DNA of 64,000 bases from an archaeon GW2011_AR10 (GCA_000830275.1 CP010424.1:622782-686781); one strand, 5' to 3'; counted from the stretch's first letter, positions 27,211 to 63,800 are shown. Notes: generated by a model from the letters alone, not told the origin. Numbers and translations are program-made.

Positions 27211-27224
27211 AAAATGGTTTCACT

Positions 27225-40956: not shown

Positions 40957-41204
40957 TGCCTTATAGTTATTCTTTTTCCAGCGAATTCAAAAAGTCATTC
41001 AAGAAACTTGACCGCAGAATGAAAATTCTTGTTAAAAAGAAGATTGCCAAGATTGCAGAGAACCCTGAACTTGGAAAACCGTTGCATAAGCCTTTGCAGA
41101 ACTTCAAAAGTGAAAGAGTTGAGAAAATGCGGATAGTCTATGCTTTTGACGGCAAATCAATCGAGTTTGCATTGCTTGACGACAGAGGACATGTTTACGG
41201 TTAA
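40956..41204 (+). CDS. relE: RelE/ParE-family toxin
   Basis: 82 aa; pattern FKKSFKKLDRRMKILVKKKIAKIAENPELGKPL...RVEKMRIVYAFDGKSIEFALLDDRGHVY matches RelE-type mRNA interferases. Confidence 0.65.
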   Translation: MPYSYSFSSEFKKSFKKLDRRMKILVKKKIAKIAENPELGKPLHKPLQNFKSERVEKMRIVYAFDGKSIEFALLDDRGHVYG

Positions 41205-41691: not shown

Positions 41692-41783
41692 TTGGCTGGA
41701 GAAGGGAGCATCCTTAATATATTAGTTTTCACTTTTAATACTACTATATAATGCGTTGAATGCTTTGCGCGCGAGGCCTTTTC

Positions 41784-44700: not shown

Positions 44701-47700
44701 GTTCCCTTGGAAAAGGGCTTGATGGAAAATACGATGTAAAAAACTCTTTTGATCCTGGAGTGATAAAATACGAAATCGCTGCTGAGGGATTCAAGCCTGT
44801 TGAGGGAGAACTTCAGGTGCTTAAAACCGGGGTGCTGAGGCTGCCGGAGGAAGTGCAGGTAAGCATTCCTGCTGGGCAGGAACAGGCAAGCGTTTCAGTA
44901 AACCTCGAAAATATTTCAGAGGAGTTAGTGCAGGACATACAGTTTGAGGTGAAGAGGCGCGGCAATTTCCCTGTTGGAATGGAGCTGAAGGCAGGCGGGG
45001 TTTCATCCATTCAGGCTAACTCAACTTACAGGGTGCCGTTTACTGCAGCTTACCATGGAATTGCCGAAAGAGAGCACGGCGAGGTTGATGTTATTGCAAG
45101 GGGCAGGGTGCTTGGCAAGTACTCTGTCAGCGCTGAAACAAGAGTGAAAATTGACTTTAACCCCGAGGTTGACCCGGCAGACATTGAGTTCAGCAAGTCA
45201 AAGTTAGTGGCTTACCTTGCAAGCGGCTACGACAACAGGCAGTTCTATGACAACAGCTATAATCAGCGTTACCCTTCAGGCTATGACAGTTCCCTGTACG
45301 GCACTGGTGGCAGCTCTCCGTATGGCACTTCCCAGTACGGCACTGGTGGCACTTCCCAGTACGGCACTGATTACTCCGGCGCAGGCTACTATGACAGCAC
45401 TTCATATCCTTACAGTTACTCCAACAACGTTTACGCGCAAAGGTACTATCCTTCTTATTTGACTGGCTATGGTTCAACTGATTACTCCAACTATAATGAC
45501 ACTCTCCCATACCGTTACCTTAATTACTCAAGCGCGCAGCAGGTTGAGTTCACTATCAGGAACAACTCTGACCTTGACTTGGTGCTGGTGCCGGATGTTG
45601 TAGCAGAGGACAAAATTGATGCTGAGGGAATACAGGTTGATGTGCCGCAGGTTACGCTGAAAAAAAAGGGCACAGCTGTCGGCGGGAGAAGAGAGGACGA
45701 GAAAGCAGTGAAGGTTTCCATAACAAACAAGCTGCTTAGGAATTATCCAAACAAGCAGTCATTCAAGTTTGACCTTGTGTTCAAATCAGATGCAGTCACT
45801 AAGTCCATTCCGCTGGAGATTTTCATTTGGAGCCCAAAGTTTGCGCTGGAAATGCAGCGCAATGTTGAGCTGTGGCTTTCACAGGAAACTCCAACGTCGA
45901 GGGCAATTGCTCAGGTTCCATTGTTTGTGAGGAACGTTGGTTTGGCGCCTGTTGAAAACATTGTGTTCAGGGCTTCGAGCGCGAGCCTTCGCGGCAATGT
46001 CAATGTCAGAGTAATTCCTGCTGTGCCTGTTCCATTCCTTGACAAGGGGCAGGCAATAACTCCGCCGCCAGCGCTTGTGGCTGAAGCAATTAGAACAGAG
46101 AAGACAACCCTGCTGGATGTGAAGCAGATTGACGTGTTTGGAACCATTGACGGAAGGCAGTACGAGTTCGGGCCAATTTTTGTGACAACCCACATTTCTA
46201 GGCCGGAGTGCTTGGTTGTTGTGCCTAACTCGCTTGAATTCCTAAGCGAAAAGGAAACAGGGGCAATAACAAAGGAATTGAAGGTTAAAAACACTTGCGC
46301 TGAAGAGGTAAGGGTTAGGCTCATTGAGCCAAGAGAGTTTGGCTCAAACAGTCTTGACTTGGCGTTTCCTGATGAAGTTGTTCCGCCGGGAAGTGATAGG
46401 CCAATTCAAATAATTTTAACCAAGAACGAGGCGTGGAATGCGCAAACACAGGTTTTTTTGCGCGGCTTCCTTGTGAGAAGCGGCAGGTTCACTTCCTCTA
46501 ACCCAATAAACGTTAACCTCAACATAGGCAAGCAGGGAGTGCAGGACAAAGTAGCTGTTGAAGAAATTTCTGTGCCGGTGTGTGGTGAGGAAGGAAAGGC
46601 AGCTGAAGAAAAGCTCGTTGCGTTTCCGAAGATTGCAACAGGCAATGACTGCAGCAACGCTTACTGTGATGCAAAACAGCTTTCAGAGTTCTTGGCTGAA
46701 AAAATCAGAAGCAGAATTGATGAAACAAAGAGGCAGGTAACCAACTACAAATCTGACTTGCTGAATGTGCCTACTTGCGAAACGCATTCATCAGGCTACT
46801 GTTCTTTTGCTGACTTGGGGCTTTCAGGGGAGAGCTTCAGCGTTTACTTCCAGAACGACATTCTTTCACCGCAGCTACTGAAGGAAGCCCTAAGCGGGAA
46901 AGGCGCGGACCTTGCTTCTTACAGAACAGACTATGCTTCAGGCTCTGATCCGGGCAGGTTTTTGGGGCAGATTGGAAAACAGGTTTTAATCAACGGAAGG
47001 ATTGAGGGGTGCGGGCGCTATAGAATGTCTGTTAACGGAGCAGTGAAAGTGCAGGGCTCGCAGCTGCAGCCTGACCTAATGGTGATACTAATTGATGTGA
47101 ACCCGGAGGGAGAAGCACTGGACAATGCAGAGGGAGCAGCAGGGGGAGCAATGACAGGAAAAGAAGTAACGGAGCAGTGCCTGCCGAAGATACAAAACAT
47201 TGCGAACTTTTTGCCGCTGGATGAAGGGTTCACTCCAGCCAACAGAAAGGACACTTTGCTTGGACTGGTTGATGTCGGCGGTGAAACACCTGAGGAAAAG
47301 CAAAAGCTTGAGGGTTTGGGAAAAGAGGTTGCAACTGGAATGTTTGGGAACGAGGCAAGGTTTGTGCAGAACGCAACCACTTCCAACAGATTGAACCTGC
47401 AGATTGGCGAAACAACTGGTTACTTGGTTAAGGTTGACATTGAGAAAACAGGGGAGGGGGCAAAGAAGACAGTGAAAGCATTCATTCAGGATGCTGGAAC
47501 TAATGCAGAAAAGCAGGGCAAGGTTGCGAAGGAGGCAGCACAAGCAATAATCGGCTTGAGGAACAACGCGATTGACGGATGCATTTCAGCAAACGATGAT
47601 TATGCTTTGCTGAAGTCAGCTGCAGAAGTTGGGGAACTTGAGATAATGGCGTGCAAGGACAGCAAGTTAAGGATTTCAGTTGGAGAGAGCTGCTGTGATA

Positions 47701-50288
47701 TAAGCGTGCTTGGCGACTTGCAGCAGGAAGTAGAAGCCGGGGCAAGCATTGACAAGGTAACCGGAATAAACCCGCCGCAGGTAAAGAAAGGCAATGCAGC
47801 GGTAACTGAAACAAAGCTTGATGCAAAAGACGAGAAAACAAACAAGTACAAATCCGAATTGCAGCTTTGCGTTACAGGATTAACTGATTTGCATAATGCT
47901 AATGGAAAGAAGGTGAAGCTTGACGCGCAGTACAAGGTTACGAAAGCAAAGGCTGCAGCAAAAGAGGTTGAATTGCAAGTATGCGGCCTGCACCCAAGCA
48001 CTCTGCTTGACGAAGTGCAAAAGCAGCCTGCCGGCACTTATTACTTTAATCCCTCGTGGAAGGGCACCCCTGAAACAATCCAGTTGAAGGAACTCATTGA
48101 AGGAGAGGTTGCTGAAGCAAACCTTGCTGAAGCAGAGAAATCCGTTGCAAGCAACAAACCAGGCGGGCAGACAAAAATTGAGGACGCGAAGAAAACCCAG
48201 AGGCTGCGGGGGCTTGGAATATATGTTGGAACATGCAGTGCGGTTGCTGCTTTGGCAGGATGGTGGACTGGATTCGGGATATTTTTGAACCCCTTAATTG
48301 ACTGCATTATTCCTGCTGCTTGGTCAGGAGCAGACGACATCGGGTTAGGCGGAGTGAAGGAATGGATTTCAGATATTTCAGGAAAGGTGTTTGGTTTCCT
48401 TGGCGGAATCACTGACAGCCTTTTCGGAAAGTTTGATGATGTTACTGAAGCATTGACAGGGCCAACAGACAACATTGAAAACTTTGACGAGTTAAAGAAC
48501 AGTGCTTTCACGACCGTAAGCACTTACTCGATTTACCGTGGTATCACAAACCCAAGCGATATCGCAACTGCATCCAATGTTAGGTCAGCTGCAAAAACAG
48601 TTTCAGAAAACCTTGCAGACCAGATAATGAAAGACAATTTCCCGCATTATCCACTCATTAGGAGCGCGAGGAGCACTGCGCTTTGGAAAAACCTTTCAGA
48701 CAAGTATTACAACGAAATTGTTAAGGGGGCTGAATCATCTTACGGAAAATCAACGCTTGATAATGCGGTGAGAAGTGCAACTGGAGCATCACATGCAGCT
48801 GTTGCAGCCGACAGTAAAGTGGTTGAAGAGTTTGTTAAGCTTAAGGGAAACCTGAAGCCTGAAGCACAAAACCTTTTGAAGGGAAATAAGGCAACTGTGC
48901 TGAATGAAGCGTTTGATTTGCAGAAATACACAGGAGCCGCTGAAGGCTCAGGAACAGTTAAGAAGTGGGATATTGGAGTTGATAGAACCACCACTCCTCC
49001 TAAATATTCTGAAAAAAGCTTTAAGAGCACCGCAGCAGGAATTGCTGACCAGCTGACTAATGACACGTGGCCGCAAATCAGGAGTGACATGGCTGAAAAG
49101 CTTGGAGCAGAGTTTGTAGGAGAAAATGAAAAAGAATTGAGGTCACTTTACAGGAGAGGCGTTGGAGCAGCAGTGAGAAACCAGCTCTCAACCCCAGTTG
49201 ACGCTGGCACAGGAAGGCTTCTGTCTTTTTCCACTGAGTTCACGCCAGCAAACGCAAGAAGCTCCGTTACCGCTGGAGTTGAAAACATTAACAAGAATTT
49301 GGCCGGCAAGGCGCTTGAATTCGTGGAAAAGAAGGCCGGCCCGAAAGTGATGCAGGAGCTTGCACAAAAAGCAGATGAAGCAATTACAAGCACTAAAGGC
49401 ACTTACAGTTTGAAATGGACTAATTTCAAGTCATATGCGAAAGGTTTCCTCAAAAATTTCGGCAAAGGAATTGCTGGAGGACTGATAGCGAATGCTGCCG
49501 GCTTGGCCGCTTACAAGGCTTACATGAACAGCGCTGGAAAAGCGGTTGAAGCTGATGAAACTTTCCAAGCGATGCAAGGAAATGCAAGTGATGATGACGG
49601 TGATGGCTTAATTGATGAAGAGGTTGCTGACGGCATTGACAATGATGGAGACGGAAAAGTGGATGAGGATGTAATAGAAATCAAGTCAGACATTACGCTG
49701 AAAAAGTACAAGCCGTACAAGGTAACAATCAGGGAGGAGTTCGGCAGGAAAACTTATACAATTGATGAAGCCGGTGAAGGCGCGGAAATTCCTGCTGACG
49801 CAAAGTTCATTGAAAAGTGCGATGCAACCCTGCAGGAAGATTTCGAGGTTGTTGGGAGCCTGCTGCCACAAGCAAACGAATTCAGTGGACAGGCCCCACA
49901 GGTTGCCAGCTACTACAAGCATTACTCTCCAATTACAAGGCATTTCTCTGATGCGTTTAATGTGCCGGAAGCGCTGCTTGTAACTGTTGCTTCATGGAAG
50001 ACAGGCATGGGAACTCAAGGAAGCGTTGAGTGGATTACGAGCTGCAATTACGGCAGCGAGGAAACAAAGTCAGTTGAAAAGAGCTTTGAGTGCGCTGCAA
50101 GAGAACTAAGCACTGCACTGAATTCTTGCAGCGGGGAAGAAAACAGCAAGGAAAAGGTAACTTGCGCTTTGCAGAAATATGATTCCGCAGGGAACAAGAG
50201 GCCAAATGAAAAAGCAGCAAACTTTGATGAACTGTTTGAACAATTCGAGCTGTGGAACAAGAGGAAATTCACAATTGAGGCAAGCTGA
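41784..50288 (+). CDS. Giant surface protein 1 (2,834 aa) with N-terminal anchor and tandem carboxypeptidase-regulatory-like domains
   Basis: Start at ATG 41784 by paralogue alignment (track ATG 41760 adds 8 aa). Conserved N-terminal motif, transmembrane helix, then beta-sandwich repeats (SLIIRVVDSATEQRVQGATIRIFDADDEGLISEVTDEDGEYIERVDKGLSLRVVVSRDGY). Y/G/S-rich region at about 45230-45520; acidic DDDGDG...DNDGDGKVDED at about 49570-49680. Confidence 0.7.
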   Translation: MGISETLSGFYAKLEDKFYGIADFFDSKGIPVNSAIDWVEDKGIPAFPLTIAAIVVVVALLYGFVFAATQQVTVVFDLKDNNGNALSQVRVSAVNSAGNNVPLGKTSFKDGEDVTLAGVPVGGTIKFSSQKEGYIDGKFSLQVSGTENLALLRMKKDVQTIVGQISLVDTETGDPVGEAQVIATLSDKSTVECNAGESIGAYECVGVLEGDSAKVDVRTSNFEDSSFTVSFFEGSVSEFELQPKASAAEGKSSLIIRVVDSATEQRVQGATIRIFDADDEGLISEVTDEDGEYIERVDKGLSLRVVVSRDGYIKYDSGAEGIERTMRDDEELWLVSMVEGGATVTVRVRDAGGAPLTGVVVSLFNSEAELLDEEKTLFAGEVDFSDLNAEATYFVTAFLDRYVPAREIVRPLQSKELDIELERLTQSNSSNLRVFVVDERNSAVNNAFLNFFELEDGKKTPSGIPQQKSDVTGKATVPVSVNISMLVEAVKGAQRGEAEVEIKQQGLNEALVTVRKELGLVTFALLDEDKEPVQGGHLTIKSGAGEELFRATLSGQNEVTVDVGENDYVKIDFLGTDGKTHAEEIYVKEQSRVEVIIGGKGSASLSPTLEFLGVFSASGAEVEGIKRGQDYFLKFQVVFPEGKGNYGMHVRVGDDSVKFADSQDVGIIGLSATGAQAFYGRTFSPFPEPGFEGVDMQNEGNPGGYNKFVELSFTEGGTKIVKVRVKAKETATDSSFDVKFRAWSEAGRSFYRAPVDSVLETAAFSSEKGTLYAETLKESVRIFQTDSSCEDDLCAGFKFIRSNDSEFAPEDFKAVVGEVYALEVELNPSKEIDATIRAVTSRSNPKIFWQGYGIDNFIDFPDNNKQETSIEVKGITAMPGQAVKTRLFFKTVELETASITLQVVTADDVLNESFFFDIFLERDMEFSIQPDEVTLGKDFSILLKEDTGKGIENATIKLKDKDGKHIETIIGDGSLGKGLDGKYDVKNSFDPGVIKYEIAAEGFKPVEGELQVLKTGVLRLPEEVQVSIPAGQEQASVSVNLENISEELVQDIQFEVKRRGNFPVGMELKAGGVSSIQANSTYRVPFTAAYHGIAEREHGEVDVIARGRVLGKYSVSAETRVKIDFNPEVDPADIEFSKSKLVAYLASGYDNRQFYDNSYNQRYPSGYDSSLYGTGGSSPYGTSQYGTGGTSQYGTDYSGAGYYDSTSYPYSYSNNVYAQRYYPSYLTGYGSTDYSNYNDTLPYRYLNYSSAQQVEFTIRNNSDLDLVLVPDVVAEDKIDAEGIQVDVPQVTLKKKGTAVGGRREDEKAVKVSITNKLLRNYPNKQSFKFDLVFKSDAVTKSIPLEIFIWSPKFALEMQRNVELWLSQETPTSRAIAQVPLFVRNVGLAPVENIVFRASSASLRGNVNVRVIPAVPVPFLDKGQAITPPPALVAEAIRTEKTTLLDVKQIDVFGTIDGRQYEFGPIFVTTHISRPECLVVVPNSLEFLSEKETGAITKELKVKNTCAEEVRVRLIEPREFGSNSLDLAFPDEVVPPGSDRPIQIILTKNEAWNAQTQVFLRGFLVRSGRFTSSNPINVNLNIGKQGVQDKVAVEEISVPVCGEEGKAAEEKLVAFPKIATGNDCSNAYCDAKQLSEFLAEKIRSRIDETKRQVTNYKSDLLNVPTCETHSSGYCSFADLGLSGESFSVYFQNDILSPQLLKEALSGKGADLASYRTDYASGSDPGRFLGQIGKQVLINGRIEGCGRYRMSVNGAVKVQGSQLQPDLMVILIDVNPEGEALDNAEGAAGGAMTGKEVTEQCLPKIQNIANFLPLDEGFTPANRKDTLLGLVDVGGETPEEKQKLEGLGKEVATGMFGNEARFVQNATTSNRLNLQIGETTGYLVKVDIEKTGEGAKKTVKAFIQDAGTNAEKQGKVAKEAAQAIIGLRNNAIDGCISANDDYALLKSAAEVGELEIMACKDSKLRISVGESCCDISVLGDLQQEVEAGASIDKVTGINPPQVKKGNAAVTETKLDAKDEKTNKYKSELQLCVTGLTDLHNANGKKVKLDAQYKVTKAKAAAKEVELQVCGLHPSTLLDEVQKQPAGTYYFNPSWKGTPETIQLKELIEGEVAEANLAEAEKSVASNKPGGQTKIEDAKKTQRLRGLGIYVGTCSAVAALAGWWTGFGIFLNPLIDCIIPAAWSGADDIGLGGVKEWISDISGKVFGFLGGITDSLFGKFDDVTEALTGPTDNIENFDELKNSAFTTVSTYSIYRGITNPSDIATASNVRSAAKTVSENLADQIMKDNFPHYPLIRSARSTALWKNLSDKYYNEIVKGAESSYGKSTLDNAVRSATGASHAAVAADSKVVEEFVKLKGNLKPEAQNLLKGNKATVLNEAFDLQKYTGAAEGSGTVKKWDIGVDRTTTPPKYSEKSFKSTAAGIADQLTNDTWPQIRSDMAEKLGAEFVGENEKELRSLYRRGVGAAVRNQLSTPVDAGTGRLLSFSTEFTPANARSSVTAGVENINKNLAGKALEFVEKKAGPKVMQELAQKADEAITSTKGTYSLKWTNFKSYAKGFLKNFGKGIAGGLIANAAGLAAYKAYMNSAGKAVEADETFQAMQGNASDDDGDGLIDEEVADGIDNDGDGKVDEDVIEIKSDITLKKYKPYKVTIREEFGRKTYTIDEAGEGAEIPADAKFIEKCDATLQEDFEVVGSLLPQANEFSGQAPQVASYYKHYSPITRHFSDAFNVPEALLVTVASWKTGMGTQGSVEWITSCNYGSEETKSVEKSFECAARELSTALNSCSGEENSKEKVTCALQKYDSAGNKRPNEKAANFDELFEQFELWNKRKFTIEAS

Positions 50289-50334: not shown

Positions 50335-51807
50335 ATGACTGGAATAAAGGGGTTCACGCTTTTCACTGCACTTGTTGCATTCATACTGATTGTTTTATCG
50401 GTGCTGCTGGTTCAGACAATGATTCGCACCGAGAGGAATACAACTGACATCATTTCAGACATTCAGGAGGAACAGGAAATGCAGGCAATAGCTGATTTGG
50501 CGAGAGCAGAGGCACTGCAAACATTCAATTACGGCATCAGGTTTTCGATTGAGGACTGGCTCACAAAAGACGGGGATGGAGACGGCATTCCTGATAATGC
50601 TTACCTTTTGACGCCAAGCGAGTTGGCTGGAACTGATGCAGAGTCATGGGAGAACACAAAGAAAAAGTTCGCTGAATCCAATTTTGGTGTTGGAGGCGAA
50701 GGAACCCAGTTTGCCAACAGGGCAGCAAACCATCTTTCAACGCTGCTTGCAAGCACGCCTGATGTAAGGGGCTTCCAAGTAAATCTTGACAACAACAGCC
50801 AGGCGGTGATTGTTAGTGTGCTGGAACCATTGTTTGAGGACAGCAGTGCAAGGCAGGACTTTTTTGAAGTGATTCGGTGTGATGGCACTTGGGATGGTTG
50901 CCCGATAGGAACTTTTTATGTTAACCTTGACATTGCAAGACTGACTGATGAGCAGTACGAGAAGCTGCCGCAGATTGTCGTGAAAAAAATCACAACAAAA
51001 GGAGAGGTGGAGAGGACTTTGAGGGAGCCGATTCTTCCAAGGGGAAATTTGCAGATTTATGTGCCGATAAGAATCTTCAAGGCAATTGCTGGGGCAAGAG
51101 ATGTTGCAAGGACAGGCAGCGGGTTTTACTCTGGAGCAATTGATGCAACTTTGTTGGAGGTAAAGTTGGGGGTTTGTGGAGAGAACACTTGCGTGCCGGA
51201 ATACCATTCTGCTTCCGGCCCTGACATTGAAGGTTTTGCCTGCGTCGGCGACACTTACGCTGACCATCCAAAAATTTCAAGCATTCCAGTTTTGATTGAC
51301 GGAACATCTTTCAACTATGATCCAAACAATGAGGAGGAAATGAGGAGCAGGCTGATTAACGAAGTTGGCAGGCCAAGGCTCCTCAACTTCTTTGCAAATG
51401 AGCTGACGCAAAACCTGCCTAATGACTTGAGTGTCCCGGCGGTTGACTTTCGGCTTGTAACAATTCCTGCGGGAAGCGGCTATGACACAATCCAGAGAAC
51501 TTCTGTTATTGTTGTAACTCCTAAGACAAGGCAGGTTGATTTCATTGGTGCGCCATCTGGAGAAGCTGTTTGCGCGAGAATTGACAGGGTTGGCGGCTTC
51601 CTTGTGTTTGAGGACACCAAGCCGGATTACATGGTGAGCGAGTTGCCAAAATATGGTTCTCTTATCCCTACTAACAGGTATGCTGTGAGGCTTTCAACTG
51701 ACTCTTTTTCTGGAGAAGTTCCTGCTGTTAAAACCTGTGAAACCATTGCAACCCCAACTGGAATAGACCTGGCAGATTTTACTTACAGATGCGAGTTCAG
51801 GGGCTGA
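50335..51807 (+). CDS. Large pilin-like protein (490 aa) with class III signal peptide
   Basis: MTGIKGFTLFTALVAFILIVLSVLLVQ: K-G then a hydrophobic helix; contains DGDGDGIPDN. Confidence 0.5.
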   Translation: MTGIKGFTLFTALVAFILIVLSVLLVQTMIRTERNTTDIISDIQEEQEMQAIADLARAEALQTFNYGIRFSIEDWLTKDGDGDGIPDNAYLLTPSELAGTDAESWENTKKKFAESNFGVGGEGTQFANRAANHLSTLLASTPDVRGFQVNLDNNSQAVIVSVLEPLFEDSSARQDFFEVIRCDGTWDGCPIGTFYVNLDIARLTDEQYEKLPQIVVKKITTKGEVERTLREPILPRGNLQIYVPIRIFKAIAGARDVARTGSGFYSGAIDATLLEVKLGVCGENTCVPEYHSASGPDIEGFACVGDTYADHPKISSIPVLIDGTSFNYDPNNEEEMRSRLINEVGRPRLLNFFANELTQNLPNDLSVPAVDFRLVTIPAGSGYDTIQRTSVIVVTPKTRQVDFIGAPSGEAVCARIDRVGGFLVFEDTKPDYMVSELPKYGSLIPTNRYAVRLSTDSFSGEVPAVKTCETIATPTGIDLADFTYRCEFRG

Positions 51808-52111: not shown

Positions 52112-55100
52112 ATGCCTGAGGGGAAAAAGGGGCTTTACGCTTCACTTGAGGGAAAGTATTACGATTTGCTTGACTGGCTTGACACGAAGGGAATCCCTGT
52201 TTACAGTGTAGTTGACTGGATTGAGGACAAGAATATTCCTTCCTTTCCTGTTGCAGTGCTTTTCTCCTTTCTTGTGCTGATTTTGGTTGGCTGGCTTGTT
52301 TTGGGCTTGGTTGCGCCGGGCAAGGCAACGCTTTCTGTTTCGGTTTTTGATGAAAGCCTTTCTCCAGTTAGTAATGTTGAAGTGAGCGCTTCGACTGCTT
52401 CTGGGGGAACAATTGGCCCGGAGCTTACTGATGCAAGCGGTGTTGCAAGCATAACTGTGCCAATGAATGAGGAAATTCTTGTTGAAGCAAAAAAGGAGCC
52501 TGATTTCAGGACAAAAACTGAAACTTTCACTGCAATTAAGCAGGAGGAAAGCCTTGAGTTGGAGTTGCAGCGCACGGTTTCAACTTTGAGGAAAACAATT
52601 GAAATTTTGAGGCCTGGAACAAACGAGCTTGTGGACGAGCTTGTGGAGCTTGAGCTTCGATGCAGTGAAAAGCCAGAGTTCAGCGAGCGCGTAACAACCA
52701 CTACAGGCATAATTACTGTTGAAGTACAGAGCGATTGCGGAACACTTCACGTTACTCCTGCCAATGGGTTCACTGCTTCCGGCACAACAAGTTTTGATGT
52801 GAGGGTTGAGGGAACAATTGAACTGTTTTTGAGGGAAGAGGAAACAGGGAAAGGCACAATAATTGTTTCAGTTACTGACAGCTCTGGAACCCCACTGCAA
52901 GGAATTGATGTTTCGGTTGTAGTGCGGAGTGATGAATCAGAAATTGGCTCGGTTGTTGAAACAAAGCAGACTCTTGCTTCAGGCACTGTTACTTTCCTTG
53001 AGGTTCCGGAAGGAACATACTCTGTAACGGCTTTTGACAGAACAGGAACGTTCAGCGAATTTGATTCATCAGAAATTGGCTTGGTGCAGGAAGTTGCGGA
53101 TGGGGCAACCAAAACTTTTTCAATTGCATTGGAGAAAACAGTAGTGGGCTCAATAAGGGTTTTAGTGAAGGACGCTGTTTCGCTTAAGGCAATTGAGAAC
53201 GCAACTGTTTCAGTGAGCAAAGAATCAGTGAATCTCCCTCAAAAGAAAACCGATGCGGAGGGAAGAGCCGAGTTTGGTGTAGGGGAACAGGTAAAGTACA
53301 CTGTTGTTGTGGACAAGGAAGGCTACCTCATTGAAGAACTTGAACTGGAGCCTGCCAATGAGTTCAGGGAAGTTCTTTTAAGGGAGGCAACAGCTGAGAA
53401 CAGCCAGAGCCTTACAGTAATAGTGAGAGACGAGGTAGGCGACCCGATTGAAAATGTAAGAATAACTTTGAGGAACGCGGAAACTGATGCGCAGGTTGGA
53501 AGGGAGCTTGTTACTGGCATTGCAGGAATTGCGTTGTTTGAAAGAGTTGAGGCGGGAACATATTACGTGTTTGCCTTGAAGCCTGGCTTCGGGGAAAAAA
53601 CAAGCCAGACATTCACTTTGAACAGGAGGCAGGAAAACAGGGTGGAGCTAACCATTTCAATCGGTTCTGGAGCAGTTGAATTGATGGTGTTTGATGAAGC
53701 AAAGCAGCCAATGGCTGGGACAAGCGTTAAACTGCTTGACTTTTACTCGAAAGAAGTTTTAAGCGAGGGCATCACAGGCTCTGATGGAATTGCTTCTCTT
53801 GCTGCGAGAGCAGACAAAACAGTTTATGCGGTGGTAACCTTGAGCGGTTACCTGCCGTACATTACTAGAACTGTTAGGATGGGAAAGGATGTAACGCAGC
53901 AACTTGAGGCAGGCATGAGGAAGGAAATAAGTGCTCTTTCACTTGAACTGGTGAGCCTGCAGCTCGGCGAAGAAACTGTGAGAGACGTTGAGGTGCCAAG
54001 CCTTGAGCCGGGGCAAAGGTATAAGGCAAAGTTTTTGCTGCTGGTGCCTAAGGGCTCTGCTTTGGAGGAGGCTGGAGTGCATTTGAGGGTTGGCGCATCA
54101 GAGGAAGGCAAAACAAATGTGCTGGAGAAAGATGACCTGTATATTCTGGGTGTGAGTTCTGCTTTCAGTGAAATTCTGCGCGGCACTTCTTTCACTCCGC
54201 CTATTGGCTATGGCGCTGACGCGCAACATTTTACTTCAGCTGAAGCGAAGTGGGTTAATGTTTTCTTTTCACAGCCAGCAAACGGCGTGATTGAAGTTGA
54301 AGCAGAAATTCAGGTTAGGGAAAATGCAAGGCGCGGCTCAGCGCTTGACTTGTGGTATAGGGCTTGGGGGAAGACAGGAAGTTACCTTAGGTTTCCAAGC
54401 GATGCAGCTCTTGGAAGCTCTGAGAACAGTGCATCAAAGCAGGCACTGTATGCTCAGGCCAAGAACAAGAAGTTTTCTGTTGGCCCAACCAACCTTTGCT
54501 TGAACGAGTTCTGCTCAACTGTTTCAATTGAGGACTTGAGGGAAGAGCTTGAAACAAGCGTTGTGGACGAATATGTTGCGGAAATAGGCAACAATTACAG
54601 GTTAAAGTTTTCCATAAACAGTGTTTCATCAGAGCTATTCGAGCAAGCAGAGCTACAGGTGGTTGACTCAACAGGCAGCCTTGCATTTGGCAATTACGAC
54701 ATTTCAACTGTTGCCGGGGAGCGGAGAAGCGGAACTGCAACAGGCTCAGAGTTAAGGGTTGGAATAGGGAGCCTGGCAAAAGATGACTTCTTTAATGGAA
54801 CGCTTGAGTTCAGTTCAAGAAAGGAGGGAACAGCCTTAGTGCAATTAAGCGTCATTTCATCCAACCAGCGGGTTTTCGAGAAAGAGGTTAGGATCCTTGT
54901 TTTGCCGGCAGAAGAGATGAGCGTTGACATTTTGCCGAAAATAATTGTGCCATTCATTAACAACAACATTTTGGTGCAGGCTTCAACTGAGGCAGAGGAT
55001 GGGTTGCTGTTGCCTGTTCCAAATGCATCAGTTTCATTGAAGAAAGACGGCGAGGTTGTTGCCTCTGGTTTCACTGATTCAGCCGGAATTTTTCCTTACA

Positions 55101-58100
55101 CGCTGTTGAACCCGAACGCAGGCATAACTGTTGGGGTTAAGGTTGAGAAGCCTGGCTTCAGGCCGGTTGAAAAAGAAATAATCGTTACTGAGGACATTTT
55201 GGTTGCAACTCCTGCAACACTGAGGGAAACCCTTAAGGTTGGCTTGGCTCCAAGCAAAGAGCTTGCATTCGGTTTAAGCAATTTAACCCAAGTGCCCCTC
55301 ACTATTTCCAGTGTTGAGGAAAGCGCTGACTTCACTAACTTGGTGAAATTTTCATTTGATGAAACCCTTGAGGGAAGAGTAATTGGGGTTAGGGAGGACA
55401 GCAACTTAACTGTTAGGGTGAGCCTTGCTCCTGCTGGAACTATTGTTGATGAGCCTACTGCTGTGAATGGAGGGGTAAGCGTTTACGTAACGAACCCTGC
55501 ATTTAACCGCACTTGGCGCAGCGTTATTCCTGCAGAGATAAGGATTGGCTTTGGTGAGGAAATAGATGATGCAGACTGCTTCAGCATTTTTCCCAGCGAC
55601 TGGAGGATTTTCACTTCAACTGAGGCCAAATCGTTGAACGTTGATGTGAAGAACTCATGCAAGATTGGCGGAATTCCTGTTAATCTCAGGAACCTGCAGG
55701 CAAGGCTCGTAACCGGCAACCAAAACCAGGCTGGAGAATTCAGGGTTAAGAGCAACTTGGAGGGAAGCAACTCAGTAAATTTAACCGGCAGTTTCCAAAC
55801 CATTTCATTGGTTGTGCCGGAAAACTCGGAGTCAACTTTGACCTTTGATTTTAACCCTGCAAACGTCAAGAGCGCCAGCTCAGAGCTAAAGGTGGAGGTG
55901 AGGGCAATTAACCTTACGGTTAACGGGGCAGAAGAAGTGAAGCGGGCAATAAATGTGAAGGTTAGTGTGAATGACTTAGTGCAGTGCTTGGATATCCCGC
56001 AAAGGGAAGGCCTAAAGCTTTTGAGCTGCCCGTTCAATGTAGGTTATGGAAATTACCCCAACAATTTCGGCGGGGCATACGGTTATGGTGGGTATCCTTC
56101 TGGTTACTCTTACGGCCAAGGTTATGGTGGAACAAGCTATTATGGGAATCAGGCTTCAGGCTACAACCTTTATGGTGGAACAGGCTATTATGGGAACCAG
56201 GCTTCAGGCAACAACCTTTATGACCCTTCCAATACAGGCCTTGGTTATGGTAGCGGCTACAACAACTACAATCCTTACGGTTCCGGTTATGGACTTGGCG
56301 CTGGTTATGGTGGAACAACAAGCTCTTACGGTTACAGTTCCTATGACCCTTACCAAACTCAATCCGGCTACGGAAGCGGATTGCCTCCATACATTGGCAC
56401 GCTTTCACAGCTTGGCTCAACTTACCCTAACCCATCTTATTACTCCCCATCCTATGGCGGCGACTACTATGATAGAAGCGCTAACAACAGGTTTGGGTGC
56501 GGCCCTGGATTAGGCCAGGGAAAAGCAGAAATAGTGCTCAACAATTCCTGCACTGACTCGGTTGAAGTGCAGGCAAGGGATGCTGATGGTTTGATAATTA
56601 ATGAGTCAACTGTTAAGATTGAGAAAGGAAAGCAGGGAAAAATCAGTGTGCAGCCAGCCTACTTTGTTGGAAGGTATCCTGTAGAGATTTCAGCAAGGCT
56701 TGAAGGAAGCGAAGAGTCATTCACTCCGATTGATTCCGTAAACGTAATCGTGGAGAACCCTTTAACTCTTTCATACAGGGACTGCATCAGTGTTTCTCCT
56801 TCAAGGAAGCTTTCATTCAACAACTTTTTCGGAAGGCCTGTAACATTGAAAGTTATAAACAGCTGCGTGAATGAAGGAGTGCGGCTGCTTTTCAGCAACG
56901 ACACGATTTTCTTTTCAAGTGGCGCATTGAGGCAGCCAACCGACGTTAGGAGCGGATTCCACGAAATGATTGAGAACTGGGCAATACTTGATGAAAAGTT
57001 TGAGTCAGCACCAGACGGCAAAACCACTCAAATACTTGAGTTTGAAATAGTGAAAGCGCTGAAGCAGTACTGCAATCAAGCACCGCCTTTCCCAAAAGAG
57101 GGAAGCATTTTCCAGCAGGTGGGAAACTTGCGCTACTTTGCTTCTTCAGCGTACTACTCTGTTCTGGGAAGAGCAAGTTTGACTGTTAAGTTTTTCACTC
57201 CTTTTGGCAGTGAGAGCAGGATTGCTTTCCCGATGGAAATAGAGGACTTCTGGGAGGGGCTGCCTTACGGTGAAAGGCTCATAAGCTACGGTGACCCGAA
57301 TTACACTCCAGACCAATGCGTGAAGCCTGATGCATTGAATTTCAACAACACTTACAATGGGTGCATTCCTATTGGAGAGCTTGACAGGCTTGCAACGCAG
57401 CCTTTTTCAACAAAGAATAATGGAGGCTTAATGGTTGTTGCAGCGCCACAGCCAGTCAGCCAGACTTGCCAGAGCTTCCAGGCACTAGTGCAGGCCGGCG
57501 CGCCAGAGAAAGGCGGCTGCGGAACTGTTGACACAATTTCAGGGCTTTCAAGCAACAGGATTGAAAAGAACGGAATGGTGTTTTACTTTAATGCCCTCAA
57601 TAACCGCGACATTGAAATGCGCGTTGACAAGTCAGCCTGGAACGGAAAAAAGGTTGAGGTTGAGGAAACATTGTTTGTTACAGTTAACAGGGTGGTGCCT
57701 TCAAGCAGCAAGCGGGTTGCTGTGCCGGTCAAGCTGTGCGTTGAAGGCGGAGCTAATATTGGGCAGGAAGAGCAGAGCATAATTGACAAACTTGATGACA
57801 AGTACGGCGAAAACAGGTGGAAGGAACTCGGCGAGTCCGACTTGAATAAGGCAATAAAGGAGGCCAAACCCAATGCAACCAATGAAGAAATCAAAAAAAT
57901 AACGGATTTGGCTAATGAAACCCCAACAACAGGAGAGGCTTTTGTGTGCGAGGCGGGAAAGAGTGGCAGCGCTGTTTACAAGGAGCTTGGCTTTGACAAG
58001 CTGTTGTTTGATTGGCGCTATGACAGCATTGGCATGCAGGCGTGCGATGCAGGTAATGCAGTAGCCTATTACTGTGATGCAACACAGCTGTCAGTGGAGT

Positions 58101-60121
58101 TGAACAAGAAGGCAGAGCAGGTAAGGACAGCGGTAAGCAAGCTGCCGAGAGAAAACTGCGGGGTTGAAGGCATAACTGATTGCAATAAGTTTGAGAACTC
58201 GAAGGAGTTGCTGCGTTTCTTCCGCAGCACAGCTGATGTTACAGATCATGCAAGGAGTGATAAGCCTGTGCTGCGCTTCTTCAAGGACTCAAATGGCAAA
58301 ATACTTGAAAATACTTCTGCAACAGAGGAAACAAAGAAGACATTGAAGGAATTGATGGATTCAATCAAAGGCACTTCAACGGATTCGATTGCTTCACAGC
58401 AGAAAACAATTGATGACACAACAGAGCTGTTGTTGAAGCTTGCTGCCAACAAGGAAGTTGACAATGGCAAAGACATTGTTGGCTTGCTGAAGAAAGAGCC
58501 TACGGGCCTGCAGGACAAGCACAAGGAAACACTGAAAGAGTTGGGCATTACTGAAGGGGAAGTGCTTGCTGTTGGCAATGAGGAATTTTATCTCATTACT
58601 TTCGAGGAATTCAAGCTGTTCCACCTAAACACTGACAAAGCAAAGAATGAAGCGCAGTGCGGCGGCTCTCCTGAGAACAAGAACTGCTGGGTTGAAAAGA
58701 ATGAAACCGGAGAGGTAATCAAAGTCAGAATCAAGGAAACCAATGAAGGGAATTTAGACGGAACCCTTATTGACACAACTTTCATGCCAGACTTCTATAA
58801 CAGCTTTGCGGGCTTTGTTGTCGGAGTACGGAATAAGCCGGAATTGAATGACTCGCAAAGAAAGGTTTTGATGAAGGACATTAAGGGAAGCGAGTTTGGC
58901 TTGGCAGAATTCAGCAACTTTGAGGAATTCTATAACCAAGATATTAACTTTAATGCAAACCTTATAAAGGACGGCTACAGCACTGATTTCAGGAAAGACT
59001 TTGCGAAGGCATCAGAGTACAAGGAACATATTGTAGGGACATTCTATTCTGAAGACAGTGCTGCGCCAAGATGGGGTTTCACGGTTAAGCAGTCTGCAAG
59101 CGACAGTGGCGCAAGCAATGCAGCGCTGCCTGACACTGGCACTTACAATGTTGGCTTGGCTTATGATTGGAGCAAGGGAACTTTAAACAACCAAATAAAA
59201 GTGCAGGTTGACTTAACGCTGAAAGAAAGGCTTAAAGGCAATTACGCAAAGAACGCGCTGTTTTACCTGCCAGTGGATGGCAGGATTGGCTTTGAGTCAA
59301 GCAGCCTTGAATTCAGCAGGGAAGACTATGGCTCTGGTTTCAGCGGCAACACCGGCCTGCTTAGGTTTGCAAACTATTCTCAGGTTGAAGGGGCTGTGCT
59401 TGACCCGATTGCTGAAAAGGGTTCAGGCAAGGAACAGTTCAAGGTTAACTACACCTCTGCCTTTGATGTTGGAAAGACAGCTTCCAAAGTGCTTTCAATT
59501 GATTCAACTGCCAAAGAAATTGTTTTCTCTCCGAGAGACCCTGTTGCAGTTGAAGTTGGAGTTGAGAAGAGAACAAACCCGCAGATTCCTGCAGGGTTTT
59601 TGTACAGCGTTTTTGGCGGAACAACCCAGGCTGGAAGCGTTGCATCACTGCTTGAGTGGCAGGTAACAGAAGACACGGTAACGGATGATGGAAATAGAAC
59701 AGCAAAGGATTCAGCGCATGCAAGCGATGAATTATGCAAAACAGGAAGCGAATCATTTTATGGCTTTGTTTTTAGCAGCGGGAAAGTAGGCCAAACAAAG
59801 ATGAAGACAATAATTTATGCTCCCACTAACACTGCATCGGTTGCAGTTTCGCGGCTCAACATTGTGTGCTGGAAGGACTCTGGCAGCGGAAGGGCAAGGG
59901 ACATTCTTGCAGATAAAAGCTTCACGCTTTCCATTGGGTCGAACCAGCTGAATCACTCTGAGAAGGACAGGATCAGAAGTGATTACACTGTTAAGAATTT
60001 GATTGAAATGGTTAAGAGCGGTGGCGAGAAAGGAAGGGTTTGCGTTGAGTCAGGAACTGAAACAGAGAAGAAACTAAACTTTTACTGGAACCCAGACAAG
60101 ATATTCGATGAATTCGGTTAG
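52112..60121 (+). CDS. Giant surface protein 2 (2,669 aa), paralogue of giant 1
   Basis: Same N-terminal motif, transmembrane helix (VAVLFSFLVLILVGWLVLGLV) and repeated beta-sandwich modules (GTIIVSVTDSSGTPLQGIDVSVVV..., GSIRVLVKDAVSLKAIENATVSVSKE...); Y/G/S-rich region at about 56040-56475; no C-terminal hydrophobic segment. Confidence 0.7.
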   Translation: MPEGKKGLYASLEGKYYDLLDWLDTKGIPVYSVVDWIEDKNIPSFPVAVLFSFLVLILVGWLVLGLVAPGKATLSVSVFDESLSPVSNVEVSASTASGGTIGPELTDASGVASITVPMNEEILVEAKKEPDFRTKTETFTAIKQEESLELELQRTVSTLRKTIEILRPGTNELVDELVELELRCSEKPEFSERVTTTTGIITVEVQSDCGTLHVTPANGFTASGTTSFDVRVEGTIELFLREEETGKGTIIVSVTDSSGTPLQGIDVSVVVRSDESEIGSVVETKQTLASGTVTFLEVPEGTYSVTAFDRTGTFSEFDSSEIGLVQEVADGATKTFSIALEKTVVGSIRVLVKDAVSLKAIENATVSVSKESVNLPQKKTDAEGRAEFGVGEQVKYTVVVDKEGYLIEELELEPANEFREVLLREATAENSQSLTVIVRDEVGDPIENVRITLRNAETDAQVGRELVTGIAGIALFERVEAGTYYVFALKPGFGEKTSQTFTLNRRQENRVELTISIGSGAVELMVFDEAKQPMAGTSVKLLDFYSKEVLSEGITGSDGIASLAARADKTVYAVVTLSGYLPYITRTVRMGKDVTQQLEAGMRKEISALSLELVSLQLGEETVRDVEVPSLEPGQRYKAKFLLLVPKGSALEEAGVHLRVGASEEGKTNVLEKDDLYILGVSSAFSEILRGTSFTPPIGYGADAQHFTSAEAKWVNVFFSQPANGVIEVEAEIQVRENARRGSALDLWYRAWGKTGSYLRFPSDAALGSSENSASKQALYAQAKNKKFSVGPTNLCLNEFCSTVSIEDLREELETSVVDEYVAEIGNNYRLKFSINSVSSELFEQAELQVVDSTGSLAFGNYDISTVAGERRSGTATGSELRVGIGSLAKDDFFNGTLEFSSRKEGTALVQLSVISSNQRVFEKEVRILVLPAEEMSVDILPKIIVPFINNNILVQASTEAEDGLLLPVPNASVSLKKDGEVVASGFTDSAGIFPYTLLNPNAGITVGVKVEKPGFRPVEKEIIVTEDILVATPATLRETLKVGLAPSKELAFGLSNLTQVPLTISSVEESADFTNLVKFSFDETLEGRVIGVREDSNLTVRVSLAPAGTIVDEPTAVNGGVSVYVTNPAFNRTWRSVIPAEIRIGFGEEIDDADCFSIFPSDWRIFTSTEAKSLNVDVKNSCKIGGIPVNLRNLQARLVTGNQNQAGEFRVKSNLEGSNSVNLTGSFQTISLVVPENSESTLTFDFNPANVKSASSELKVEVRAINLTVNGAEEVKRAINVKVSVNDLVQCLDIPQREGLKLLSCPFNVGYGNYPNNFGGAYGYGGYPSGYSYGQGYGGTSYYGNQASGYNLYGGTGYYGNQASGNNLYDPSNTGLGYGSGYNNYNPYGSGYGLGAGYGGTTSSYGYSSYDPYQTQSGYGSGLPPYIGTLSQLGSTYPNPSYYSPSYGGDYYDRSANNRFGCGPGLGQGKAEIVLNNSCTDSVEVQARDADGLIINESTVKIEKGKQGKISVQPAYFVGRYPVEISARLEGSEESFTPIDSVNVIVENPLTLSYRDCISVSPSRKLSFNNFFGRPVTLKVINSCVNEGVRLLFSNDTIFFSSGALRQPTDVRSGFHEMIENWAILDEKFESAPDGKTTQILEFEIVKALKQYCNQAPPFPKEGSIFQQVGNLRYFASSAYYSVLGRASLTVKFFTPFGSESRIAFPMEIEDFWEGLPYGERLISYGDPNYTPDQCVKPDALNFNNTYNGCIPIGELDRLATQPFSTKNNGGLMVVAAPQPVSQTCQSFQALVQAGAPEKGGCGTVDTISGLSSNRIEKNGMVFYFNALNNRDIEMRVDKSAWNGKKVEVEETLFVTVNRVVPSSSKRVAVPVKLCVEGGANIGQEEQSIIDKLDDKYGENRWKELGESDLNKAIKEAKPNATNEEIKKITDLANETPTTGEAFVCEAGKSGSAVYKELGFDKLLFDWRYDSIGMQACDAGNAVAYYCDATQLSVELNKKAEQVRTAVSKLPRENCGVEGITDCNKFENSKELLRFFRSTADVTDHARSDKPVLRFFKDSNGKILENTSATEETKKTLKELMDSIKGTSTDSIASQQKTIDDTTELLLKLAANKEVDNGKDIVGLLKKEPTGLQDKHKETLKELGITEGEVLAVGNEEFYLITFEEFKLFHLNTDKAKNEAQCGGSPENKNCWVEKNETGEVIKVRIKETNEGNLDGTLIDTTFMPDFYNSFAGFVVGVRNKPELNDSQRKVLMKDIKGSEFGLAEFSNFEEFYNQDINFNANLIKDGYSTDFRKDFAKASEYKEHIVGTFYSEDSAAPRWGFTVKQSASDSGASNAALPDTGTYNVGLAYDWSKGTLNNQIKVQVDLTLKERLKGNYAKNALFYLPVDGRIGFESSSLEFSREDYGSGFSGNTGLLRFANYSQVEGAVLDPIAEKGSGKEQFKVNYTSAFDVGKTASKVLSIDSTAKEIVFSPRDPVAVEVGVEKRTNPQIPAGFLYSVFGGTTQAGSVASLLEWQVTEDTVTDDGNRTAKDSAHASDELCKTGSESFYGFVFSSGKVGQTKMKTIIYAPTNTASVAVSRLNIVCWKDSGSGRARDILADKSFTLSIGSNQLNHSEKDRIRSDYTVKNLIEMVKSGGEKGRVCVESGTETEKKLNFYWNPDKIFDEFG
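56126..56221 (+). repeat. In-frame 48-bp tandem duplication inside the Y/G-rich region of giant gene 2
   Basis: Unit 1 (56126-56173) encodes GGTSYYGNQASGYNLY and unit 2 (56174-56221) GGTGYYGNQASGNNLY; the two units differ at a handful of positions. Confidence 0.6.
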
Positions 60122-60181: not shown

Positions 60182-60667
60182 TTGAGGCTTCAGTTTATGA
60201 ATGAGAACCAATTGATTTATGTGCCGTTGAATTTTATCATGTTTCTTGTGGGCCTCGCGGTTGGCTTCTTTCTGGAATTGAACATCGCGCCTTTCACTTT
60301 TGGCATTCACCCCGCTGTTGACGCAGTTGTTTTAACTTTCGGGGTTTTCGTGCTCTCAATTGTTTTCTATGGTTACCTTAACCCTGTTATTTTCCTTTAT
60401 ATTGGCCTGCTTCACTCAGGCCTGGTTTCAGGGAACCCTATTGGAGTGGTAATGCTCTTGCTTCCATTGCTTGTTGCATCTTATGGGGGTGGAATGACTG
60501 CAGGCTATTTGGCGGTTGACCTGCACGAGGAAGGCAACCTGTTCGAGCACAAAATCCAGATAGCGGCTTTTTTCTTTGGGGCGCTGTTTTTGGCGCTTGT
60601 AATAGGGCTGCTTTACGGTTTTCTCCCCAACCTGGAGGAACTTGACAGCCTGATTTTTTATGATTAA
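60182..60667 (+). CDS. Hypothetical polytopic membrane protein
   Basis: 161 aa with about four to five helices. Confidence 0.45.
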   Translation: MRLQFMNENQLIYVPLNFIMFLVGLAVGFFLELNIAPFTFGIHPAVDAVVLTFGVFVLSIVFYGYLNPVIFLYIGLLHSGLVSGNPIGVVMLLLPLLVASYGGGMTAGYLAVDLHEEGNLFEHKIQIAAFFFGALFLALVIGLLYGFLPNLEELDSLIFYD

Positions 60668-60875: not shown

Positions 60876-63800
60876 ATGGGTGTCCTAGATTCATTGAAAA
60901 ACATTTATTTTGGCCTCGAGGAAAAGTACTATTCTCTGCTGGACAAAATCGATGAAAGGATCCCAATTTACAAGATAATCGACCCAATTGACAAGATTGT
61001 GCCGAGTTTTGCACTGGTTTTAATCATCGGTTTCTTGCTCCTTGTTTTGGCACTATGGTGGCTTGCAGGAATACTGCTGCCGCCGACAACCTCAACCCTG
61101 ACAATTGTTGTGGTGGAAGAGGATAAAACTCCAATAGAAAATGCTGCCGTAACTTTTTCGGTTGGCGGTGAGGAAGAAAGCAGGGAGCGCACAAACGAAA
61201 ACGGTGAAGCAAAGCTTGAGGGCATTGAAAAGGGAACAGAGGTGTTCGTTGAAGCCGAGAAAGAAGGCTATCAGACAAGGACAAGGAGCGTGTTCGTTTC
61301 AGAGGTTCCAAGCCAGGTTGAAGAAATCGTTTTGGAGCTGGAGGAAGCTGCATTTGAAACAAAAACAATCAGGCTTGTTGATTCTCTTGGGCAAGGCGTT
61401 CCGGCTGAGTTCACGCTTACTTTCAGCTGCAGTGACCCTTTTGCAACTCCGCCTTCACCGGTAAACCTGCTTAGAAGCGATTTTGGGGTTGCAAGGGTTC
61501 AGGTGCCAAGCAACTGCGGAACACTGCGCGTTTCAGTAATTGATGATGCAGGCTATGAAAACATAACAAGCATTGAGGTCATTGGGAATGACTTCAGGAT
61601 TGAGTTAAGTGAAGCAGTAAAGCCTGAAGGCACAATCGCGGTAAACCTGCTGGATGAAGACGGAAATCCAATTGAGGACTCAGTTGAAGTGCAGTTGTAC
61701 CGCTACGATGACCTGGTTCAGAACCCGGAAATAGGGCCAATTGATTTTGGTTACAGTTCCGGCGGGCAAGCAACATTTGTTGCAACTGTGGGACAGTACG
61801 TGGTGAAGACGTTTGACTCTTCCGGAGTTTATGGGGATGAAACTTCCGCCAGGATAACGCTTTCAGCTGATGAAACCAAGACAGTTAACATCACTTTAAC
61901 TGCGAATGTCATTGGGAGCATTAAGATTCAGGTAATTGATTCTGCTTCAAGGCAGCCGGTTGACAATGCAAAGGTAACATTAAAGTATCAGAGCGATGAA
62001 AGGCAGGTGGCGCAGCTCACAACTGACTCGGATGATGACGCAATAGTTGAGTTCTCCATTTCCAGGGACGTGGAATACAGGGTTTTGGTTGAAGCAGAAG
62101 CCTACCAGCTTGGAAAAAGGGAGAGCCTTGAAATAAGCAGTGCTGTTGTAGTGGTTGAGCTCAACAAGTGCACTCCAACAACTTGCGGAAAGCTTTTAGT
62201 GAAGGTGCTAGACCAAGACGGGGAACCAGTGGAAAATGCTGCTGTTTCATTGTACAATGCTTCAACCAATTACCTGGCTGGCTACAGCAACAAGGTGTCT
62301 GATCTCAATGGAGTTGCAGAGTTTACTGGAGTCAGCTCCGGAAACTACTTTGCGTTTGCGTTCAAGGAAACAATTTCAGGGAGAAGCGACACAACATATT
62401 TCAGCAGTACAAGCAATGACGATGAAGACGTTGACTTGACTGTTTCAATGGAGATTCCAAACGGGATTGTGAGGGCGCTTATTGTTGACAAGGAAGGAAG
62501 AGGAATTGCTTTTCCAATTGTTACTGTGTTTGATGCGCGCACAAACGAGGTCATTGGCTCAAGGCAGGGGGAAGCGGATGGCACCTTCGAGCTTGAAACA
62601 AAGGCTGACAAAAGGGTTTACCTGCGCGTTAGGCAGAAGGACTCAAAGCCAAGGATGGCAGACTACTTCACTGTAGCGAGGCCTGTTGTGCCGTCAACCA
62701 TTCAGGAGTTCACAATAGTAATGGAGCCGGAAATAATTGACAAGGACATCGAGGCAGAGTTTTTGGGTTTGTTCCAAGCAGGGGAAAGGGCAAAGACTCT
62801 TTCAAAAGGAGAACAGTACACGGCAAGATTCAGGTTGCGCGTGCCAGAGGAAAAGGATTACTCTGAAACAGGAATGCACATCAGGGTTGGAAAAGAACTC
62901 ATAATGGAAAAAGACCCCATTGTGTTGAAGGAAATAAACGCTCCAGCAGCATCAATCATCAAGGCAACAAAGTTTGACCCTGACTCAGGATTAAGCGAAC
63001 AGCAATATGCTTTGACGAATGATGACGCAAAATGGTCCAACATTGTTTGGAGCAATGAGCCGGCTGCAGGAATATATGAGGTTGAATCGGTTGTGGAAAT
63101 AAAGGAAACCGCCTCAATTCGCGATGAGCTGGAAGTGCATTGGCGGGGCTGGGCTGAAAACGGAATCAGGGAAAGAAATCCTGAGGATGACTCTGTTTCA
63201 ATTGAGCTTTACTCTAATACCCACACGCAGGTGTTTGAGGTTGGCGTAACCACTTTGTGCAGTGAGGACTTCTGTTTCAGCGCAAGGATAAGGGACCAGG
63301 AAGCAGGCCTAACCGAATCTGTTTCTGATGCGTACACTGCAAGGATTGGGAACACTTACGAATTTAGGTTCATTATTACAAACAACAACCCTTCAAGGAT
63401 TCACGACAACGCGGATCTTAGAATCAACAACGTTGACCAGGCAGTCAGGTTTTTGGAGTACAGCATGGTGAACGCGCAAACAGGAGAACTGCAAGGCGTA
63501 GTCAATGGTTCAGAATTTCCAAGGCTGAACGTTGGCAATTTGAGCCCAAACCAGGACATTGTTCTGACAACAGAGTTCGTAACATTGAAGCCAATCACAG
63601 GCATCATAAGCATCAGGCTTGTATCTGATGAGGCAATTGTTTTCGAGAAAAACCTTACAATCCAGATTTCTGCGCCGAAGGAAATGACTGTAACTGTTCT
63701 ACCGCAGCGCTATGCTTCCGGCATAGAAACAGACATTAATGTGCTGGTCAAGGACAAGGAAACAAGGCTTGAGCTGGAGGAAGCTGTTGTAAGGCTCAAA

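Follow-up and report, generated by a model that had tools for sequence, protein, structure and literature searches.

A conserved N-terminal module defines a family of giant cell-surface proteins in DPANN archaea

Iainarchaeota and Micrarchaeota are nano-sized archaea that have scarcely been cultured, if at all. In the genome of archaeon GW2011_AR10 we analysed a stretch of 64,000 nucleotides (GCA_000830275.1, CP010424.1:622782-686781; hereafter the window), on one strand of which three very long open reading frames (ORFs), G1, G2 and G3, begin with similar sequences that each run into a hydrophobic helix. The window has a G+C content of 44.8% and contains no tRNA genes or Rfam matches. What is this shared N-terminal segment, and what might it do for proteins of such size? 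An earlier note on this DNA had described a conserved motif that could be a targeting or anchoring module, a role that seems plausible when judged from the sequence.

Three giant genes share an N-terminal motif

The three giant genes and the N-terminal parts of their products are arranged as follows:

41784..50288, + strand: G1 giant gene, 2,834 amino acids (aa) from the ATG at 41784; the mechanical ORF is 41760..50288
41784..41927, + strand: G1 motif, 48 aa, with the G1-type signature ...EDKGIPAFP
41928..41987, + strand: single transmembrane (TM) helix of G1, approximately residues 49-68
52112..60121, + strand: G2 giant gene, 2,669 aa
52112..52249, + strand: G2 motif, residues 1-46, with predicted helix 5-25, KGIP turn, helix 30-39 and NIPSFP elbow
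52250..52318, + strand: single TM helix of G2, a probable signal-anchor, approximately residues 47-69
60876..64000, + strand: G3 giant gene, at least 1,041 aa, continuing past the window end
60876..61013, + strand: G3 motif, 46 aa, with the G3-type signature IDPIDKIVPSFA carrying two one-residue deletions
61014..61085, + strand: single TM helix of G3, approximately residues 47-70

For G1, the ATG at 41784 is the most likely start because homologues begin MGISETL. The span 52112..52330 encodes G2 residues 1-73, that is, the motif together with its TM helix. G2 is 100% identical to database protein P0001, and AJF60239.1, listed as a hypothetical protein from archaeon GW2011_AR10 (whose genome belongs to Diapherotrites/Iainarchaeota), falls in the same 90% cluster. 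In NCBI, relatives bear the name hypothetical protein or carboxypeptidase regulatory-like domain-containing protein. The giant ectodomains open right after the TM helix with CarboxypepD_reg, Big_1, SpaA and CnaB-like beta-sandwiches, a set that is the repertoire of cell-surface proteins. In G2, CarboxypepD_reg, Big_1 and SpaA-type beta-sandwich repeats occupy approximately residues 70-520, and the rest is without annotation. The density of N-glycosylation sequons did not separate the giants from other proteins of the window.

The three N-termini quoted in the earlier note are exact in the sequence, and their similarity extends beyond the hydrophobic helix. Local BLOSUM62 alignment of the pre-helix parts alone gave pairwise scores of 147, 82 and 97 where shuffled sequences averaged about 21-22 (SD about 4.5), corresponding to z-scores of 27, 14 and 17, with identities of 25/44, 18/47 and 21/40 among the motif pairs. 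An HMM built from the three copies and run against a six-frame translation of the window matched these three only. G1 and G2 are paralogous at 22% identity over approximately 1,150 aa and G2 and G3 at 29% over approximately 1,060 aa; BLAST of G1 against G3 detected the N-terminal 51 aa and nothing further, which makes the motif the best-conserved part of the giants. The DNA of the three copies shows 52-65% identity, and of the 18-26 residues that any two motifs have in common, 8-11 are encoded by different codons. These many synonymous differences indicate a constraint on the protein, not recent gene conversion; we therefore reject an origin of the similarity in gene conversion or in a signal at the DNA level.

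The motif marks the N-termini of giant proteins

The earlier note had proposed a profile search as the way to see whether the motif always sits at the N-terminus of giants, and the results bore this out. G2 has 13 full-length relatives (2,216-2,763 aa, with identity down to 23%), and the motif is N-terminal in 13/13. A 48-column profile of the motif only, searched against 1.84 billion cluster representatives, matched 934 proteins at E<=1e-3, of which 299 also reached E<=1e-10; among the matches listed (of the 934), the motif was N-terminal in 150/150. In 151 of 158 proteins its first residue lies among the protein's first 10; the remaining cases, with later starts, would seem to reflect wrongly annotated start codons. 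It was the exhaustive HMMER search that gave these relatives; a word-indexed search with a 3-sequence motif alignment returned 2 candidates and found nothing. The lengths of the carriers are bimodal: 81 proteins reach 1,500 aa or more and have a median of 2,547 aa, and there are many short pieces besides. These short carriers are most likely contig-end fragments, and one of them, P0016, has the same N-terminal sequence as G2.

A TM-like segment directly follows the motif in 155 of the 156 proteins with enough sequence. The lone carrier that lacks it, P0029, is a 213-aa fragment near-identical to the G1 N-terminus, in which an internal deletion removes most of the TM helix (…IPAFPLTIAAIV/FDLKDNN…); it may be an assembly or strain variant.

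In a scan of one genome per species the motif was found at 55 loci, all in Iainarchaeota/Diapherotrites or Micrarchaeota metagenome-assembled genomes (MAGs) and including Ca. Iainarchaeum andersonii and the complete genome CP064981.1. The scan used a tight 7-sequence alignment with patterns that favour the G2-type signature, so absence outside these two groups is unproven. Complete motif-bearing ORFs in the related loci are all 1,665-3,046 aa long, with two apparent exceptions. In CP064981.1 (locus L021) an in-frame TAG at 16316..16318 breaks the G2-type giant into ORFs of 2,120 and 562 aa, and at 9956..17700 of locus L012 the giant gene is frameshifted and spread over three reading frames; these broken giants could be pseudogenes, assembly errors or instances of recoding.

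The motif is predicted to fold as a helical hairpin

Across 121 sequences the motif is conserved at 2.63 bits per column, compared with 1.38 for the TM helix and 1.22 for the first ectodomain domain. Because the TM helix is generic, specificity would lie in the cytoplasmic part. The consensus reads xxLKxFYxxLEDKYYxFLDWLDxKGIPVYKVVDxIExx[GN]IPSFP, followed by the TM helix, and key residues (G2 numbering; conservation computed over the same 121 sequences) are P43 (100%), Y9 and E13 (99% each), D21 (98%), G27 and Y31 (96% each), P29 (94%), F45 (92%), D35 (90%), Y17 (89%) and P46 (80%).

AlphaFold2 (AF2) run with family alignments predicted helix 5-25, helix 30-39 and a TM helix at 44-67, followed by a beta-sandwich. 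Confidence was high, with mean pLDDT values of 94.6 for a 165-aa model and 90.2 for a 74-aa model, the same three helices in both, and pLDDT of 94-96 across G2 residues 11-60. That helix 1 packs against helix 2 is assumed, and is taken only from the confidence values of these models. Plotted on a helical wheel, helix 1 has its conserved residues in one arc (140-320 degrees) and its variable ones opposite; the arc comprises a hydrophobic/aromatic half (L12, L23, Y16, Y9 and L20) and an acidic half (E13, D24, Y17, D21 and D14). The hydrophobic moment of helix 1 is 0.18-0.39 and its mean hydrophobicity is near 0, values that are atypical of a helix that seeks the membrane surface. The amphipathic character of helix 2, by contrast, is clear (moment 0.5-0.8). 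APC-corrected mutual information over 201 sequences returned subfamily signatures and not contacts.

Consistent with the earlier note, in which the motif was not recognised as a named family, residues 1-75 of six members had no match at E<=10 in Pfam-A 2025 or NCBIfam 20.0 (2026), and searches with the full giants against the same libraries gave nothing in the motif region. A sequence search of the PDB returned no significant match (best E = 0.19), and Foldseek with the 165-aa model matched the beta-sandwich domain and nothing else, with an SlaB domain among the many matches to this first ectodomain domain. No description of the module was found in the literature searched. The Micrarchaeota S-layer protein is a different, 101-kDa protein.

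A proposed uncleaved signal-anchor topology of the giants

Each giant has one TM-like segment, directly after the motif; in G2 its Kyte-Doolittle peak of 2.91 is the only one in 2,669 aa. The segment before the TM helix carries 4.6 K/R on average with a net charge of -3.3, the flank after it has 0.8 K/R per 15 aa, and net charge is negative on both sides. It is therefore the K/R count only that would favour an N-in orientation, and an acidic cytoplasmic flank would be unusual for a signal-anchor. From the single TM helix and the external beta-sandwich ectodomain, together with the excess of K/R before the membrane, we infer that the motif is cytoplasmic, as the earlier note had supposed. Its further observation that the motif is conserved and precedes the helix agrees with the pre-helix alignment and with conservation in the family.

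A classical Sec signal has a short basic n-region, an h-region of about 7-15 residues and a small-x-small cleavage site. The giants differ on each count: the region before the helix is 46 aa long with a net charge of -3.3, the uncharged stretch that follows the motif averages 28.6 residues, and the family alignment has no conserved small-x-small (AxA-type) columns. We therefore reject a classical cleaved Sec signal peptide, in line with the earlier note, and infer that the helix is probably retained. Neither ESPR (PF13018) nor YSIRK (PF04650) gave a hit at E<=10 in the 75-aa N-termini of six members or any on the full proteins, and a Tat signal, which would need S/T-R-R-x-F-L-K ahead of the h-region, is not indicated, there being no RR pair in the three copies or the consensus. 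A class III (prepilin) signal is likewise not indicated for the giants, in which [KR]-[GA] before the hydrophobic helix is not conserved: immediately ahead of IPSFP, 45% of sequences have G, 39% N and 7% V, with G3-type proteins showing a deletion at that site, and 53% have K or R one residue earlier. Other secreted proteins of the window, including ones of 1,609 and 1,016 aa, have short K/R-hydrophobic-AxA signal peptides; the module is therefore family-specific and not a general export need of large proteins.

The first of these, encoded at 12832..17661 on the - strand, is a 1,609-aa secreted protein with a classical signal peptide and a C-terminal ...LPSLPENPVV-TM-RREKN tail that looks like a sortase-type sorting signal. 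An exosortase/archaeosortase-family protein, with a TIGR04178 signature above cut-off, is encoded at 31029..31586 (+ strand).

The giants belong to a conserved gene array

In Iainarchaeota the giant genes lie on one strand in a conserved order, G1-type, p490, G2-type, p161, G3-type. Neither this array nor the predicted hairpin figured in the earlier note. The two smaller genes of the array in the window are:

50335..51807, + strand: p490, 490 aa, between G1 and G2, with the type-IV-pilin-like start MTGIKG followed by FTLFTALVAFILIV
60197..60667, + strand: p161, a small multi-TM membrane protein of about 156 aa, between G2 and G3

In 39 related loci p490 directly precedes the G2-type giant, and its prepilin-like start, [KR]-[GA] followed by F-[TN]-L-F-T-A-L, is conserved. 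It has no Pfam family; its N-terminus matches the bacterial minor pilins ComGF, ComGE, ComGG and ComGD weakly (E = 1e-5, below curated cut-offs). p161, which has no family match, follows the G2-type gene in 16 related loci and could be a membrane partner of the giants. Each position in the array has its own motif signature, E[DG][KR]GIPAFP for G1-type, VDAIE[AS]xNIPSFP for G2-type and IDPID[KR]xxPSFA with one-residue deletions for G3-type proteins. From these position-specific signatures it follows that the triplication is old and that the module was kept in each lineage.

Elsewhere in the window are two separate type-IV-pilus/archaellum-type assembly sets, at 6682..9736 (+ strand; a T2SSE ATPase and two T2SSF proteins) and 24853..29504 (- strand; a 759-aa T2SSE ATPase and a 785-aa T2SSF protein). 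Just upstream of G1, at 40744..41204 (+ strand), two small overlapping ORFs of 70 and 82 aa look, by eye only, like a putative antitoxin and RelE/ParE-type toxin pair. A 1,016-aa secreted murein hydrolase with Amidase_3, PKD and glucosaminidase domains, a bacterial cell-wall hydrolase type in an archaeon, is encoded at 32926..35976 (+ strand). In a related locus (L010, 1..8319) a G1-type giant ends in a domain of about 150 aa that is 45% identical to residues 858-1014 of this hydrolase, its C-terminal, glucosaminidase-containing part, which hints that the distal tips of giants could carry murein-degrading activity.

Discussion

The giants are an undescribed family of approximately 2,500-aa DPANN cell-surface proteins defined by their N-terminal module. 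The module in turn constitutes a domain family that is likewise undescribed, restricted in lineage and conserved in its operon context. The reading that we favour, tentatively and with somewhat less than even confidence, is that the module is a folded cytoplasmic hairpin on an uncleaved signal-anchor and the common docking or assembly handle of the giants. An amphipathic helix (5-25), a K-G-I-P turn and a short helix (30-39) would lead through a rigid [GN]-I-P-S-F-P elbow into the membrane, where the TM helix would insert N-in as the giant ectodomain is threaded outwards. On the cytoplasmic face the hairpin would then show a near-invariant Tyr/Glu/Asp surface, to which helix 1 contributes Y9, E13, Y17 and D21 and helix 2 contributes Y31 and D35. 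Because three anciently diverged paralogues appear to keep this surface while their ectodomains have diverged, down to 25% identity or less, the hairpin would most likely be a docking or assembly handle common to them. Its binding partners may be other giants, in which case the hairpins would make up the base of a composite surface structure, or there may be a single partner common to all three, in the membrane or the cytoplasm.

Several other accounts of the module were weighed against this one. It is possible, if on balance doubtful, that the module is a specialised export or targeting extension of the ESPR or YSIRK kind, read by targeting or insertion machinery as the N-terminus emerges, which would pace or route translocation of a 280-kDa ectodomain, or direct its site, and have no later role. 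Such an extension would fit a motif that sits at the extreme N-terminus, directly before a hydrophobic segment, on very large exported proteins only, and that three paralogues share whatever the ectodomain. It fits poorly, however, with a hydrophobic segment of TM length (about 23 residues or more) that has no conserved cleavage site and with a confidently predicted folded hairpin, acidic and not basic, in place of a flexible n-region; the 1,609-aa protein of the window is secreted with an ordinary signal peptide, and Pfam gave no match to ESPR or YSIRK. We consider it improbable that the module is a mechanical anchor foot with no specific partner, in which two interfacial helices and the TM helix resist the pull on a long ectodomain. 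The richness of the segment in Tyr, Trp and Phe, the strong moment of helix 2 and the elbow prolines P43 and P46, which suggest a fixed angle to the TM helix, are as expected of such a foot, but the moment of helix 1 is low and its mean hydrophobicity near 0, three to five acidic residues among the most conserved would face anionic lipid head groups, and the near-invariant E13, D21 and D35 exceed what a generic interfacial helix needs.

A further idea is that the module is a very long prepilin-type leader, cut between [KR]-G and I-P by a prepilin peptidase, after which the giants would be lifted from the membrane into a type-IV-pilus-like fibre with p490. The giants would have the N-in single-helix topology of prepilins, pilin-like p490 lies between G1 and G2 at its 39 loci, the window holds two ATPase/platform sets (T2SSE/T2SSF), and [KR]-G does stand just before IPAFP in G1-type copies. 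We nonetheless judge it very improbable, given that the residue before IPSFP is G in fewer than half of the sequences, frequently N, and deleted or changed in G3-type copies, that no pilin N-terminal model matches, that known class III signals do not resemble a folded, acidic leader of 46 aa, and that no prepilin peptidase was detected among the window ORFs scanned. We give next to no credence to the view that the motif has no special function and reflects residual paralogy or chance. The giants are indeed paralogous over approximately 1,100 aa, but conservation is far higher in the motif than elsewhere in the protein, and the motif is retained in two phyla and 934 clusters; its conservation, the alignment z-scores and the profile matches refute this view.

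The three giants, p490 and p161 might be parts of one unrecognised surface apparatus of Iainarchaeota and Micrarchaeota with the hairpins as its base, an extension that we put forward as speculative and think unlikely; the hairpins could join one copy each of G1, G2 and G3, or couple the giants to a type-IV-pilus-like motor. Such an apparatus, for example a host- or prey-attachment organelle, would mean that approximately 2% of a 1.24-Mb contig is spent on one heteromeric structure, and the weight of the finding would rise if the array does encode a single apparatus. As three giant genes in fixed order with one shared module, the array's giants are strong candidates for cell-contact machinery. 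An HMM of the 46-aa module is a compact and specific probe for giant genes, even on fragmented metagenome contigs, and the module is a small foldable target for structural and interaction work, easier to handle than a 280-kDa protein.

Very large proteins thought to mediate cell contact have been described in another group with reduced DPANN genomes, as the SPEARE proteins of Nanohaloarchaeota (PMC6642349); SPEAREs and giants are alike in size and in being DPANN proteins, although we found no sequence relation between them. Like Sulfolobus SlaB and generic type II signal-anchor proteins, the giants would have a single-pass anchor bearing a stalk of beta-sandwich domains. In SlaB, however, the anchoring helix is C-terminal and a conserved cytoplasmic domain is absent, whereas the giants would carry a conserved cytoplasmic hairpin at the N-terminus. 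Class III prepilins are N-in bitopic proteins whose single hydrophobic helix is preceded by a cytoplasmic leader, an arrangement that the giants would share, and the presence of pilin-like p490 in the array adds to the likeness. Prepilins require G/A at -1, however, a position at which the module has 45% G and 39% N, and the module leader is 4-10 times longer than class III leaders, is predicted to be structured and matches no model.

Conserved N-terminal extensions on giant exported proteins are already a known theme. The YSIRK-G/S motif of Gram-positive surface proteins is also N-terminal and conserved, and is thought to direct the site of secretion, but it is short, cleaved and bacterial, with no sequence match to the module. 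The ESPR of type V secreted proteins (PF13018) resembles the module as a conserved extension at the extreme N-terminus, before a hydrophobic export segment, and in being almost confined to very large surface proteins. The ESPR, however, is bacterial, approximately 25 aa long and contained within a cleaved Sec signal, whereas the module, which has no Pfam match, is archaeal, 46 aa long, acidic and predicted to be folded, and is followed by a full-length TM helix without a cleavage motif. To the few conserved extensions of this kind known from very large exported proteins, the module thus adds one from archaea.
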